NCBI RefSeq assembly: GCF_013167455.1
Contig: NZ_CP038328.1
Length of the DNA stretch: 64,000 bases
Source: Escherichia coli O157:H7
Lineage (GTDB): Bacteria > Pseudomonadota > Gammaproteobacteria > Enterobacterales > Enterobacteriaceae
Strand: one strand, 5' to 3'
A program made the position numbers. Shown one piece after another: positions 45,001-63,000 of this stretch (position 1 is the stretch's first letter; every line of letters starts with the position of its first letter).

Positions 45001-48000
45001 AAATCTGCAGTAAAGTAAGTTTCCCGATGCATCCGTAGCTCAGCTGGATAGAGTACTCGGCTACGAACCGAGCGGTCGGAGGTTCGAATCCTCCCGGATG
45101 CACCATCTCTTACTTGATACAGCTTTAGTAGCGGTATCAATATCAGCAGTAAAATAAATTTCCCGATGCATCCGTAGCTCAGCTGGATAGAGTACTCGGC
45201 TACGAACCGAGCGGTCGGAGGTTCGAATCCTCCCGGATGCACCATATTCTCCGTAATCATCAGTGATGATGGTTAAGATGGATTTTCTTATTTGATATGG
45301 CTTTAGTAGCGATATCAATATCAGCAGTAAAATAAATTTTCCCGATGCATCCGTAGCTCAGCTGGATAGAGTACTCGGCTACGAACCGAGCGGTCGGAGG
45401 TTCGAATCCTCCCGGATGCACCATATTCTCCGAAATCTTCAGCAATGAAGATATCGAAGAGGTAGCGGAATTAACCGCAGGCACCAGGAAGGATAACGTT
45501 GCTTTAGCAACGGCCCGAAGGGCGAACGCCAGTGAGTCATCCTCCCGGATGCACCATCTTCTCCAAAAAATTTCCTTCAAAAATATCTCATTTCTAAATA
45601 ACTACTTTATCCATTTCCTGAATTTTCTTCTCCTTCGCCATCAGCGACAAAATCAAGCAATTACGCTAAAGTAGCGTCATATTTTTCGACTTGCGAGAAG
45701 ACCATGTACGAGCGTTATGCAGGTTTAATTTTTGATATGGATGGCACAATCCTGGATACGGAGCCTACGCACCGTAAAGCGTGGCGCGAAGTATTAGGGC
45801 ACTACGGTCTTCAGTACGATGTTCAGGCGATGATTGCGCTTAATGGATCGCCCACCTGGCGTATTGCTCAGGCAATTATTGAGCTGAATCAGGCCGATCT
45901 CGACCCGCATGCGTTAGCGCGTGAAAAAACAGAAGCAGTAAGAAGTATGCTGCTGGATAGTGTCGAGCCGCTTCCTCTTGTTGAAGTGGTGAAAAGTTGG
46001 CATGGTCGTCGCCCAATGGCTGTAGGAACGGGGAGTGAAAGCGCCATCGCTGAGGCATTGCTGGCTCACCTGGGATTACGCCGTTATTTTGACGCCGTCG
46101 TCGCTGCCGATCACGTCAAACACCATAAACCCGCGCCAGACACATTTTTGTTGTGCGCGCAGCGTATGGGCGTGCAACCGACGCAGTGTGTGGTCTTTGA
46201 AGATGCCGATTTCGGTATTCAGGCGGCCCGTGCAGCAGGCATGGACGCTGTGGATGTTCGCTTGCTGTGAGTGAAGCGTTATCGCTTTTCTCGTTGTTTG
46301 CCAGTAGTTTTCTCAGCGCTACACTATTACCCGGCAACTCCGAAGTCGTGCTGGTGGCAATGTTGCTTTCTGGGATCAGTCATCCCTGGGTTTTAGTTTT
46401 AACAGCAACAATGGGTAATAGCCTTGGAGGGTTAACTAACGTTATCCTTGGGCGTTTCTGTCCATTGCGTAAAACATCGCGCTGGCAAGAGAAAGCTACC
46501 GGCTGGCTGAAACGCTATGGTGCAGTCACGCTATTATTAAGCTGGATGCCCGTGGTTGGCGATTTACTGTGTCTGTTAGCGGGATGGATGCGCATCTCCT
46601 GGGGGCCGGTAATCTTTTTTTTGTGCCTTGGTAAAGCGTTACGCTATGTTGCAGTTGCAGCAGCGACCGTTCAGGGCATGATGTGGTGGCACTAATTGTA
46701 GGCCTGCACATATGGTCACCATTACAGTTATGCTAATTAAAACGATTTTGACAGGCGGGAGGTCAATTTGATCCCGGACGTATCACAGGCGCTGGCCTGG
46801 CTGGAAAAACATCCTCAGGCGTTAAAGGGGATACAGCGTGGGCTGGAGCGCGAAACTTTGCGTGTTAATGCTGATGGCACACTGGCAACAACAGGTCATC
46901 CTGAAGCATTAGGTTCCGCACTGACGCATAAATGGATTACTACCGATTTTGCGGAAGCATTGCTGGAATTCATTACACCAGTGGATGGTGATATTGAACA
47001 TATGCTGACCTTTATGCGCGATCTGCATCGTTATACGGCGCGCAATATGGGCGATGAGCGGATGTGGCCGTTAAGTATGCCATGCTACATCGCAGAAGGT
47101 CAGGACATCGAACTGGCGCAGTACGGCACTTCTAACACCGGACGCTTTAAAACGCTGTACCGTGAAGGGCTGAAAAATCGCTACGGCGCGCTGATGCAAA
47201 CCATCTCCGGCGTGCATTACAACTTCTCTTTGCCTATGGCATTCTGGCAAGCGAAGTGTGGCGATATTTCGGGCGCTGATGCTAAAGAGAAAATCTCTGC
47301 GGGCTATTTCCGCGTTATTCGCAACTACTATCGCTTCGGTTGGGTCATTCCTTATCTGTTTGGCGCGTCTCCGGCAATATGCTCTTCATTCCTGCAAGGT
47401 AAACCAACGTCGCTGCCGTTTGAGAAAACCGAGTGCGGTATGTATTACCTGCCGTATGCGACCTCTCTTCGTTTGAGCGATCTCGGCTATACCAATAAAT
47501 CGCAAAGCAATCTTGGTATTACCTTCAACGATCTTTACGAGTACGTAGCGGGCCTGAAACAGGCAATCAAAACGCCATCGGAAGAGTACGCGAAGATTGG
47601 TATTGATAAAGACGGTAAGAGGCTGCAAATCAACAGCAACGTGCTGCAGATTGAAAACGAACTGTACGCGCCGATTCGTCCAAAACGCGTTACCCGCAGC
47701 GGCGAGTCGCCTTCTGATGCGCTGTTACGTGGCGGCATTGAATATATTGAAGTGCGTTCGCTGGACATCAACCCGTTCTCGCCGATTGGTGTAGATGAAC
47801 AGCAGGTGCGATTCCTCGACCTGTTTATGGTCTGGTGTGCGCTGGCTGATGCACCGGAAATGAGCAGTAGCGAACTTGCCTGTACACGCGTTAACTGGAA
47901 CCGGGTGATCCTCGAAGGTCGCAAACCGGGTCTGACGCTGGGTATCGGCTGCGAAACCGCACAGTTCCCGTTACCGCAGGTGGGTAAAGATCTGTTCCGC

Positions 48001-60000: not shown

Positions 60001-63000
60001 GGTAGTAAACGCGTCCTGTTTTGCCCTCTTTGCGTATCTCTACTTTCGCCACAATCGGATGAATACTCGACGTAGCATGGTTGATATAAGAGATAGAACC
60101 TGTTGGCGGCACCGCCTGAAGATTCTGGTTGTAAATGCCGTAGCGCATCACGTCGTCGCGCAGTTGCGCCCACATCTCACGGGTAGGTAACGTAATACCG
60201 CTACGGGCAAACAGTTCGCCAACTTTCCCCGTTTTCGGCTGCCAGTTCCCTTGCAGATATTGGCTAAAATATTCACCACTGGCATAGCGTGACTGTTTGA
60301 ACCCGGCGAAGGTTTCACCGCGTTCGCGTGCCAGCAACATCGAGGTACGCAGTGCGTGCCAGGTGATGGCATAGAAATAGAGATTGGTGAAATCCAGTGC
60401 TTCCGGCGAACCATAAGCGATGCCTTCTCGCGCCAGATAGCCGTGTAAATTCATCTGCCCCAGTCCGATGGCGTGCGAGGCGGCATTTCCGGCTTCGATG
60501 GACGGCACGCTGCGGATATGACTCATATCTGATACTGCCGTTAAACCGCGCACGGCAGTCTCTACCGTGCGGGCAAAATCGGGGGAATCCATGGTGTGCG
60601 CAATATTCAACGAACCTAAATTGCAGGAGATATCATGGCCTGTGCGGGCATAGTCGAGATTCTCGTCATACTCTGAGGCGCTGTTAACCTGCAAAATTTC
60701 TGAGCAGAGATTACTCATATTTATGCGCCCGGCGACAGGGTTAGCACGGTTTACCGTGTCTTCATACATGATGTAGGGATAGCCGGACTCAAACTGGATT
60801 TCTGCCAGTCGCTGGAAGAAATCACGGGCGTTGAGGTATTTTTTGCGAATGCGTTCATCGGCAACCAGTTCGTCATAGTGTTGGCTGATGGCCACATCGG
60901 CAAACGGCTTGCCATAAACTCGCTCTACGTCATAAGGCGAAAACAGCGCCATCTGCGCATTCTCTTTTGCCAGATGGAAAGTGATATCCGGGATCACCAC
61001 GCCAAGCGACAGTGTTTTAATGCGGATTTTTTCGTCGGCATTTTCCCGTTTCGTGTCGAGAAAACGCAGAATATCGGGATGATGAGCATGTAAATAGACT
61101 GCACCAGCCCCCTGACGAGCGCCGAGTTGGTTGGCATAGGAAAATGCGTCTTCCAGCATTTTCATCACCGGAATTACGCCAGAAGATTGATTTTCAATAC
61201 GTTTAATTGGCGCGCCCGCTTCCCGCAGATTCGACAGCAAAAATGCTACGCCGCCGCCGCGTTTCGACAGTTGCAGTGCGGAATTTACCGCCCGACCAAT
61301 CGACTCCATATTGTCTTCAATACGCAGCAAAAAACAGGAAACCAGTTCGCCGCGCTGCTGCTTACCGCAGTTGAGGAATGTTGGCGTGGCTGGCTGAAAG
61401 CGTCCTGACAGCATTTCATCTGTCAGTTGCAACGCCAGCGTCTCATCGCCTTGTGCCAGCGTCAGCGCCACCATCGTGACTCGATCGGCAAAATCTTCCA
61501 GATAACGTTTACCGTCGAATGTCTTCAACGTATAGCTGGTGTAAAACTTCCATGCCCCGAGGAATGTCTGGAAACGAAAACCGCTGGTGTGTGCGTGGGC
61601 AAACAGCGTAATGACAAAGTCGCGAGAGTAGCGATTAAGAACGCTTTCATCATAGTAACCTTCGTTGACCAGCCAGTTCAGGCGCTGCTGCTGGCTACTG
61701 AAGGTCACACTGTTCGGACGCACATGCGTCGCCATAAAGGCGTCAACGGCCTGGCGGTCTTTATCGAACTGAATGCGACCTGCGCTATCGTAGAGGTTAA
61801 GCATCGCATTCAGCGCGTGGTAATCCATCGTTTTCTGCGTCAGGCATTCTGCGGTTGTCGTTGCCAAAATTCGGTTACTCCTTTACGAACGTTTTCGATA
61901 TCGCTTTGCGTACCCATGAGTTCAAAACGGTACAGCCACGGCACGCCGCATTTCCGGGCAATCACATCTCCGGCGCGGCCATACGCCTCACCAAAGTTGC
62001 GATTACCCGAAGCAATAACGCCGCGAAGCAACGCCCGGTTGTGCTCGTCGTTTAAAAAGCGAATTACCTGTCGTGGCACCGCGCCAGCCGTACCGCCGCC
62101 GCCGTAAGAGGGCACGATCAGGATGTAAGGCTCGTCTACCTGAATCCGTTCCCGCTCATTGAGCGGGATGCGCACCGCGGGCAGACCTAAACGTTCGATA
62201 AAACGCTGCGTGTTTTCGGAGCTGCTGGAGAAGTAGACGAGCTGGCTCATGCACTGGCCGCGTGTGGCGCTGGATGCAGACGGTTAATCATGTCCGGACG
62301 GAAACCAGACCAGCTAAGATCGCCAGCAATCACTACCGGCAACTGACGAAAGCCCTGAGCACGCAACGCTTCTGCCGCTTCAGGAACGCGATCGACATTA
62401 ATCATTTCAAAATCAAAGCCCCGGTTTTCCATCGCCCGTTTGGTGGCGTGGCACTGAACGCAATCGTTACGAGTGTAAATAGTAATGCGCATGATTCGTA
62501 TTTCCGTTTAAAATGAAGATACGGCGCGATGATACGCGTCGGGTTGTCTCTCTGTTGATACAGAGATACTAGATGTAGTTGAAAAAAGATTCAACCACAC
62601 AAGATATGGTAATTTTAGATTGATTACGCCACCGGTGAATGGCTCAACGGGGTAGGGGATTTTGTGTTTTTTTTGCCGGGCGCATACCCGGCAACAGCAA
62701 ATTACATCCGCATGGAAACGGCCAGACGGTTAAAACAATTCATCAGCCCGATGGCAAACGTTAAGTCGCTGATTTCTGCTGCGCTGAAATGCTCAAGCAA
62801 AGGCTGATAAACCTCGTCTTCCGCATGGGTTCTGGCAATATCGGTCACAGATTCCGCCCATGCCAGCGCCGCTCGCTCGCGTTCATCAAAATGATGGCTT
62901 ACGCGCCAGCCTGCCAGGGCGTCCAGTTTGTGTTGTGGCACACCGGATTTGCGCAATGCTTTGCTGTGCATCTCCAGACAAAATGCGCAGCCGTTGATTT

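Follow-up and report, generated by a model that had tools for sequence, protein, structure and literature searches.

The stretch of Escherichia coli O157:H7 chromosome analysed here (64,000 nt of contig NZ_CP038328.1, assembly GCF_013167455.1; hereafter the window) carries six genes, gshA, nrdE, yqaA, hycB, hycI and hypE, that are annotated as starting with TTG or GTG. This raises the question of whether translation of these genes begins at the annotated codons and, if it does, what keeps ATG from taking their place. We are highly confident that all six are genuine, already-annotated non-AUG initiation sites of ordinary housekeeping or operon genes, at which wobble reading by the initiator fMet-tRNA would be directed to the site by a Shine-Dalgarno (SD) sequence or by coupling to the upstream gene, with gshA acting as a weak start and nrdE probably subject to dual coding. 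The six starts are ordinary and known, since they stand in the curated reference annotation. The sole new point is a modest one, which appears to be undescribed, namely that a Phe-Trp pair encoded by nrdI probably locks the nrdE start as TTG.

All six codons are present in the window sequence. For comparison, start codons were taken from two RefSeq annotations, that of an O157 strain of 100% identity, mapped onto the window, and that of K-12 MG1655 (NC_000913.3). Both annotations hold the same six non-ATG starts and no others in the region.

46768..46770, plus strand: gshA TTG initiation codon (coding sequence 46768..48324, 518 aa; TTG in O157 RefSeq and in K-12)
61865..61867, minus strand: nrdE TTG initiation codon (coding sequence 59723..61867, 714 aa; TTG in O157 and in K-12)
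46267..46269, plus strand: yqaA GTG initiation codon (coding sequence 46267..46695, 142 aa; 4-nt GTGA overlap with the yqaB stop codon)
13623..13625, plus strand: hycB GTG initiation codon (coding sequence 13623..14234, 203 aa)
20429..20431, plus strand: hycI GTG initiation codon (coding sequence 20429..20899, 156 aa; 8-nt overlap with hycH)
10216..10218, minus strand: hypE GTG initiation codon (coding sequence 9208..10218, 336 aa; GTGA overlap with the hypD stop codon)

A preliminary description made from the sequence had listed exactly these codons, and its list proved both correct and complete by the RefSeq annotation. The alignment with curated K-12 annotation that it had proposed returned the same six codons at the same positions (gshA b2688, nrdE b2675, yqaA b2689, hycB b2724, hycI b2717, hypE b2730). 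The flanks are alike save for a few substitutions, and the window genome shows small amino-acid differences from K-12, such as Lys instead of Glu at NrdE residue 12. The range that it gave, 46768-61867, holds for gshA and nrdE but leaves out yqaA, which lies 500 nt upstream, and the hyc and hyp genes at 10-20 kb. It had also stated that the starts are not those of the longest open reading frame, which is wrong here. Each of the six annotated codons is the first ATG, GTG or TTG past the upstream in-frame stop (2 to 23 codons upstream), and all six are therefore longest-reading-frame starts.

The chromosome is of the E. coli O157:H7 type. The window matches K-12 at 2.80-2.86 Mb in reverse orientation, and its genes run from the rpoS side through mutS, the hyp and hyc operons, asc, hydN-hypF, norRVW, srl, recA, alaS and csrA to a tRNA cluster, yqaBA, gshA, luxS, emrRAB, proVWX and nrdHIEF. 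A 3-kb gshA probe was 100% identical to many O157:H7 chromosomes and 95-99% identical to nearly all of 5,424 other E. coli genomes. The region does not concentrate unusual starts. The K-12 counts are 54 ATG, 4 GTG and 2 TTG, and the non-ATG share of the window is 9.7% (6 of about 62 coding sequences), compared with about 17% genome-wide (AUG/GUG/UUG usage about 83/14/3%). Since some 10.5 non-ATG starts would be expected (P(X>=6) = 0.96; P(TTG>=2) = 0.56), there is no enrichment, and a local cluster of unusual starts was ruled out. The practical value of the set is that of a control: reading the raw sequence recovered every non-ATG start in 64 kb.

What would direct the ribosome to these codons differs among the six. 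The initiator fMet-tRNA is expected to read UUG and GUG through first-position wobble, and the choice of site would fall to a Shine-Dalgarno sequence or to coupling with the upstream gene. The predicted duplex with the 16S rRNA 3' end has an energy between -6.1 and -11.5 kcal/mol in five genes, and for yqaA (-3.9 kcal/mol) a GTGA overlap stands in for a strong SD. Free-standing initiation would apply to gshA and hycB, each with an intergenic SD of its own and no overlap. The other four starts lie within the end of the upstream gene, by 4 nt in yqaB/yqaA and hypD/hypE, 8 nt in hycH/hycI and 28 nt in nrdI/nrdE, and from this geometry we infer translational coupling of yqaA, hypE, hycI and nrdE to their upstream genes.

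The start of gshA is the one whose codon has been manipulated. With a lacZ fusion in which AUG replaced the UUG, Sakamoto et al. (2015, PMC4405209) found that basal synthesis rose 3.0-fold and that polyamine stimulation fell from 2.4-fold to 1.1-fold; since the reporter responded in this way, the UUG is used and is relevant to expression. The experiment shows it to be a weak start that lowers basal synthesis about 3-fold and makes it responsive to polyamines. The sequence around the codon is in agreement with its use. An in-frame TAA stands at codon -10. The candidates that follow in frame are a TTG at +30 and an ATG at +78, and this ATG, the nearest in frame, falls inside the conserved domain. 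Position 1 of TIGR01434 (an NCBIfam equivalog) aligns to residue 6, and Pfam Glu_cys_ligase aligns from residue 10. The SD is as follows.

46757..46762, plus strand: gshA Shine-Dalgarno sequence GGGAGG, 5 nt before the TTG (predicted 16S rRNA 3'-end duplex -11.5 kcal/mol)

Escherichia, Salmonella, Enterobacter, Cronobacter and a Klebsiella-like genome share the block GACAGGCGGGAGGTCAATTTG without change. TTG is kept in the five genera, and the block GACAGGCGGGAGGTCAATTTGATCCCG is invariant across the last four. In the same relatives the sequence upstream of the SD carries indels of 6 nt and 1 nt, and this region is not coding because indels there are not multiples of three. An upstream ATG (in TTATGCT) was rejected as the start. 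In E. coli, Salmonella and Enterobacter it does not share the gshA frame; only in the Klebsiella-like genome has a 1-nt indel brought it into frame, 13 codons upstream of the conserved TTG (L088, 2501-2542). Some metagenome and ENA gshA calls of the Klebsiella-like type (P0104, P0106, P0111, P0113 and P0116) use this ATG. They give proteins of 527 or 531 aa beginning MLNKNEFDRREV(K/N)LIPDVSQ, in which the SD region is translated as protein. These calls are probably a longest-reading-frame artefact of the relatives, and not of E. coli, and they show that start-codon assignment is still consequential in close relatives. A match to the small RNA MicA (Rfam RF00078, 84 bits) lies between gshA and luxS, on the opposite strand at 48334-48405 and 10 nt past the gshA stop codon.

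For hypE, the start has been observed directly. The in-frame stop lies at codon -2, an SD AGGAG stands at 10227-10231 (duplex -10.8 kcal/mol), and residue 3 is matched by position 1 of TIGR02124. Where E. coli has the GTG, Pantoea and Serratia carry ATG, and the LAHGSGG motif follows it there too. The 2006 record of K-12 began the gene at another codon, and the 2014 re-annotation moved the start 42 nt upstream.

10174..10176, minus strand: former (2006) hypE ATG start, codon 15, 42 nt downstream of the GTG, superseded

In ribosome profiling with tetracycline (Nakahigashi et al. 2016, PMC4909307, Table S2) the GTG received read scores of 60/55/55 and the old ATG 0/0/0, and the codon-15 ATG, which would also delete the conserved LAHGSGG motif, is rejected as the start. 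HypE structures from archaea and from Desulfovibrio can be aligned from residues 3-5 onward. For 2I6R, the crystal construct of E. coli HypE, the match begins only at residue 13, which is consistent with the old ATG-start form plus a tag.

The two hyc starts were assessed by profiles and by comparison with relatives. Upstream of hycB the in-frame stop is at codon -8 and an SD GAGGA lies at 13611-13615, 7 nt before the GTG (duplex -6.1 kcal/mol), with the next ATG at +33. The first ferredoxin Cys motif begins at residue 12, the HydN and AegA profiles align their position 1 to residue 1, and the N-terminus MNRFVIAD is called in 73 of 120 HycB homologues. In hycI the stop is at codon -4, the SD GAGGAG at 20418-20423 (duplex -9.3 kcal/mol) and the next ATG at +11, and the alignment of TIGR00142 runs from its position 1 at residue 3. 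In the relatives, the codon aligned with the hycB start is GTG in Klebsiella and Pantoea and ATG in Edwardsiella, Serratia and Shewanella; the one aligned with the hycI start is GTG in Klebsiella and ATG in Pantoea, Edwardsiella and Serratia. Such a swap of ATG and GTG within a single alignment column is a classic mark of true starts, and on this comparative ground it points to the annotated codons of both genes. The alternative-site table of the INRI-seq study shows weak out-of-frame peaks near hycB and hycI.

The yqaA GTG, the least documented start of the six, is the first candidate after an in-frame stop at codon -23. No NCBIfam model matched the protein, and its match to the Pfam VTT_dom starts at residue 29. 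Five genera keep the GTG and the N-terminus VS(E/D)(A/G)LSL(F/L/A)SLF, with synonymous variation. Two other in-frame codons were rejected: the TTG at +9 is CTG, TTA or CTC in other genera, and the ATG at +31 is a Leu codon in Cronobacter and in the Klebsiella-like genome. Because both vary among the five genera, the GTG is the sole conserved candidate.

Only for nrdE did a downstream ATG stand as a serious rival at the outset. According to the preliminary description the starts are set by conserved N-termini, and this is borne out for HypE, HycI, HycB and GshA, whose profiles align from residues 1-6. NrdE does not follow: TIGR04170 begins at residue 15 and Pfam RNR_N at residue 16, directly behind an in-frame ATG at codon 14, and the argument from a conserved N-terminus does not decide the nrdE start because the profiles begin only there. 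The TTG is the first start-capable codon past an in-frame TAA at codon -6, and it and its rival compare as follows.

61878..61883, minus strand: nrdE Shine-Dalgarno sequence AAGGAG, 10 nt before the TTG (predicted duplex -8.2 kcal/mol)
61826..61828, minus strand: in-frame nrdE ATG at codon 14, rival start, rejected (duplex +0.2 kcal/mol)

To settle the question, 100,044 species genomes were scanned with NrdE, and the best 80 loci (L005-L084; 72-96% identity) were compared at the nrdI-nrdE junction. They span Enterobacterales, Halomonadaceae, Pseudomonas, Rhizobiales and several Actinobacteria. At the homologous position 67 of the 80 loci carry an in-frame TTG with (A/E/D)-T after it; this TTG is the only candidate in 31 and the one with the best SD in 63. 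An ATG equivalent to codon 14 occurs in 8 of the 80, the residue elsewhere being mostly R, L, P, A or T, and another E. coli (L005) has Arg there. The codon-14 ATG, with no detectable SD before it and lost in 72 of 80 relatives, even within E. coli, was therefore rejected as the main start, and the junction comparison settles the nrdE start as TTG. Among the same loci, the NrdE proteins of Nocardia, Mycobacterium, Dietzia and Cellulomonas (L046, L054, L062-L067, L077 and others) are 72-75% identical to that of E. coli; an identity so high for orthologues of different phyla may reflect horizontal spread of the nrdHIEF operon.

Given that the TTG is the start, we turn to why it is TTG. The beginning of nrdE is also the end of nrdI.

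61840..61867, minus strand: nrdI/nrdE overlap, 28 nt (nrdI 61840..62250, stop codon TGA at 61842-61840; nrdE 59723..61867)
61864..61869, minus strand: nrdI Phe-Trp codons TTT TGG, holding the nrdE TTG in the other frame (nrdI reads GAA TTT TGG CAA, E F W Q; the nrdE frame reads ATT TTG GCA)

The nrdE TTG consists of the last base of the nrdI Phe codon and the first two bases of the Trp codon. The nrdE SD AAGGAG is likewise written in the nrdI codons AAA GGA GTA (Lys-Gly-Val) of a conserved motif (61840-61887, minus strand), and since the SD sits in motif codons, the register G-V-x-x-F-W sets the spacing between SD and start. As long as NrdI keeps Phe-Trp, with Trp encoded by TGG and Phe by TTT or TTC, the nrdE start can therefore only be TTG or the very weak CTG.

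If the start codon matters, the third base of the Phe codon should report it, and the comparison of loci is in line with this. Of the 80 loci, 75 have the C-terminal NrdI motif V(R/K)xG(V/L)xxFW, and 67 of these 75 encode its Phe as TTT. At loci with a GC content of at least 0.60 the motif codon is TTT in 23 of 28, compared with 71 TTT to 895 TTC (7% TTT) among the Phe codons of nrdE at the same loci. The five high-GC loci with TTC are mycobacteria, in which nrdE has a GTG five codons downstream, inside the nrdI codons ACG TGT. Photorhabdus and Morganella (Morganellaceae) also have TTC, and a downstream ATG is used for nrdE. Brevibacterium carries Leu-Cys (CTG TGT) in NrdI instead, and its nrdE starts with GTG at that position. 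This co-variation of Phe codon and start supports the TTG as the functional nrdE start, with its identity imposed by nrdI. We consider it probable that the nrdE UUG is an ancient start locked by dual coding, with start and SD both inside the motif (R/K)xG(V/L)xxFW, as indicated by the retention of TTT at 60-69% GC across Gammaproteobacteria, Alphaproteobacteria and Actinobacteria and by the drift to TTC where the start has moved. On these comparative data the choice of TTG would reflect a dual-coding constraint and not the tuning of expression. No earlier description of the Phe-Trp lock was found in the searchable literature, a search outside which the original nrdHIEF papers lie. The nrdI/nrdE pair offers a small, clean case of an overlapping frame dictating which initiation codon is possible. 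It indicates that a single synonymous site can report a functional non-AUG start, and non-AUG starts in other overlapping gene pairs could be validated computationally by the same logic.

An alternative view of why the six codons persist is that they were selected mainly as throttles on expression or as regulatory devices of the polyamine-modulon or infC type, and not by neutral drift or overlap. The evidence for gshA is direct, its UUG cutting basal synthesis 3-fold and conferring polyamine stimulation (PMC4405209), and nrdE has two named features of the polyamine modulon, a UUG and an SD 10 nt away. However, the GTG codons of hycB, hycI and hypE are not maintained, close relatives having ATG at the same site, and the nrdE TTG is accounted for by the Phe-Trp overlap with no need of regulation. 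The GTG codons of yqaA and hypE may simply drift, and they are unconstrained because a synonymous change in the last codon of the upstream gene would give ATGA. As an account of the whole set, selection for throttling is therefore doubtful. The statement in the preliminary description that non-ATG starts matter for expression holds experimentally for gshA only, by the UUG-to-AUG change.

Dual initiation, with the non-ATG codon and a downstream ATG of K-12 and O157 nrdE, and possibly of other genes here, both being used to yield two N-terminal proteoforms, is very unlikely. It draws on the tetracycline profiling study (PMC4909307), which reported dual starts for 22 of the 67 E. coli genes that it re-examined, and on the presence of the codon-14 ATG in nrdE of K-12 and O157, but this ATG has no SD and is not conserved within E. 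coli (Arg in L005), and for none of the six genes does the INRI-seq table of alternative starts include an in-frame site.

Least credible of all is the reading in which the TTG and GTG codons are annotation convention and downstream in-frame ATGs are the real starts (nrdE codon 14, hypE 15, hycI 12, hycB 34, yqaA 32 and gshA 79): the years for which hypE was annotated at its ATG, the crystallised HypE construct without the first residues and the NrdE profiles that start right after codon 14 speak for it, but none of these ATGs has a usable SD (duplex +1.2 to -5.0 kcal/mol, nrdE +0.2), conserved profile positions would be lost in HypE, HycI, HycB and GshA, the hypE ATG has no ribosome-profiling signal (PMC4909307), the nrdE ATG is missing in most relatives, the yqaA ATG is replaced by Leu and gshA mutagenesis gave what is expected of a UUG start (PMC4405209). 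The preliminary description had named this scenario as the one that would overturn its claim; considered gene by gene, it was rejected for all six, and the ribosome profiling that it had suggested as a check is, for hypE, already published and favours the GTG.

Several points weigh against genuine initiation at all six codons and against the nrdI lock. The SD of yqaA is weak. NrdE residues 1-14 lie outside the family profiles, and the codon-14 ATG does exist in K-12 and O157, where it could serve for a minor second initiation. The retention of TTT has a binomial P of about 6e-22, which overstates its significance because the 80 nrdE loci are not phylogenetically independent, and the value becomes 1e-7 to 1e-12 if the loci are collapsed to about 8-12 lineages. 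No direct N-terminal sequence or start-site profile was found for nrdE, hycB, hycI or yqaA, and the supplements of the TRAINSPOTTER N-terminomics and Salmonella riboproteogenomics studies do not mention the six genes. Standard aerobic rich medium leaves the operons of nrdE, hycB, hycI and yqaA silent. PDB chains match full-length GshA, NrdE (of Salmonella), HycI and HycB, and these matches are no proof of native N-termini because deposited sequences follow constructs or annotation.

Other features of the window were recorded in passing. The INRI-seq table gives in-frame alternatives for three further genes: an ATG 12 nt upstream for hypA (12825-12840, minus strand), an ATG 9 nt upstream for ascG (24164-24175, plus strand) and a TTG at +39 nt for fhlA (9095-9134, minus strand). 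The hypA upstream ATG is present in the window (ATGGGAGGCGATATG) and overlaps the SD of the annotated hypA start. A match to naRNA4/CssrE lies just downstream of proX (55003-55080, minus strand). The norV gene (29522-30961, minus strand) is intact, with 479 aa as in K-12, and is 204 bp shorter in the otherwise identical O157 strain CDC#03-98, a strain polymorphism. The sorbitol phosphotransferase genes srlA and srlE (36087-37607, minus strand) are annotated as frameshifted pseudogenes in the matching O157 strain and appear in the window as shorter open reading frames (216 and 131 aa). Their breakage would presumably fit the sorbitol-negative phenotype of O157:H7. Relative to K-12, the window has insertions of the O157 type. 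At 194-3015, beside rpoS, a MarR-family regulator and the hydroxyarylic acid decarboxylase subunits B, C and D take the place of ygbI-ygbN. Beyond nrdH, at 62702-64000, are a carboxymuconolactone decarboxylase-family gene and a pyridoxal phosphate-dependent aminotransferase-family gene. The ygaY gene (53714-54898) encodes an intact major facilitator superfamily transporter here and is a pseudogene in K-12.

Three known systems bear comparison with these starts. The first is the polyamine modulon, in which cya, spoT, cra, uvrY, frr and gshA have weak UUG or GUG initiation codons and to which emrR belongs by virtue of an SD that lies 10 nt away from the AUG (Sakamoto et al. 2015, PMC4405209). 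Of the genes considered here, gshA is an experimentally shown member through its UUG. For nrdE, which shares the UUG and the SD at 10 nt, there is resemblance only. The emrR (mprA) gene itself lies within the window (51907..52437, minus strand), and nrdE combines its 10-nt SD spacing with a UUG.

The second is the class of coupled overlapping gene pairs. The junctions yqaB/yqaA and hypD/hypE share the GTGA arrangement, and in the longer overlaps hycH/hycI and nrdI/nrdE the SD lies inside the upstream gene. What sets the nrdI/nrdE pair apart is that nrdE begins 28 nt before nrdI ends. A ribosome terminating on nrdI would have to back up to reach the start, or initiation occurs de novo at the internal SD.

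The third is the autoregulated infC, with its AUU. The likeness is that selection retains a conserved initiation codon that is not optimal. The difference is that IF3 discriminates against the non-canonical codon of infC, which provides feedback control, and control of this kind is neither known nor suggested for any of the six genes. In nrdE, the overlap with nrdI explains instead why TTG is retained.

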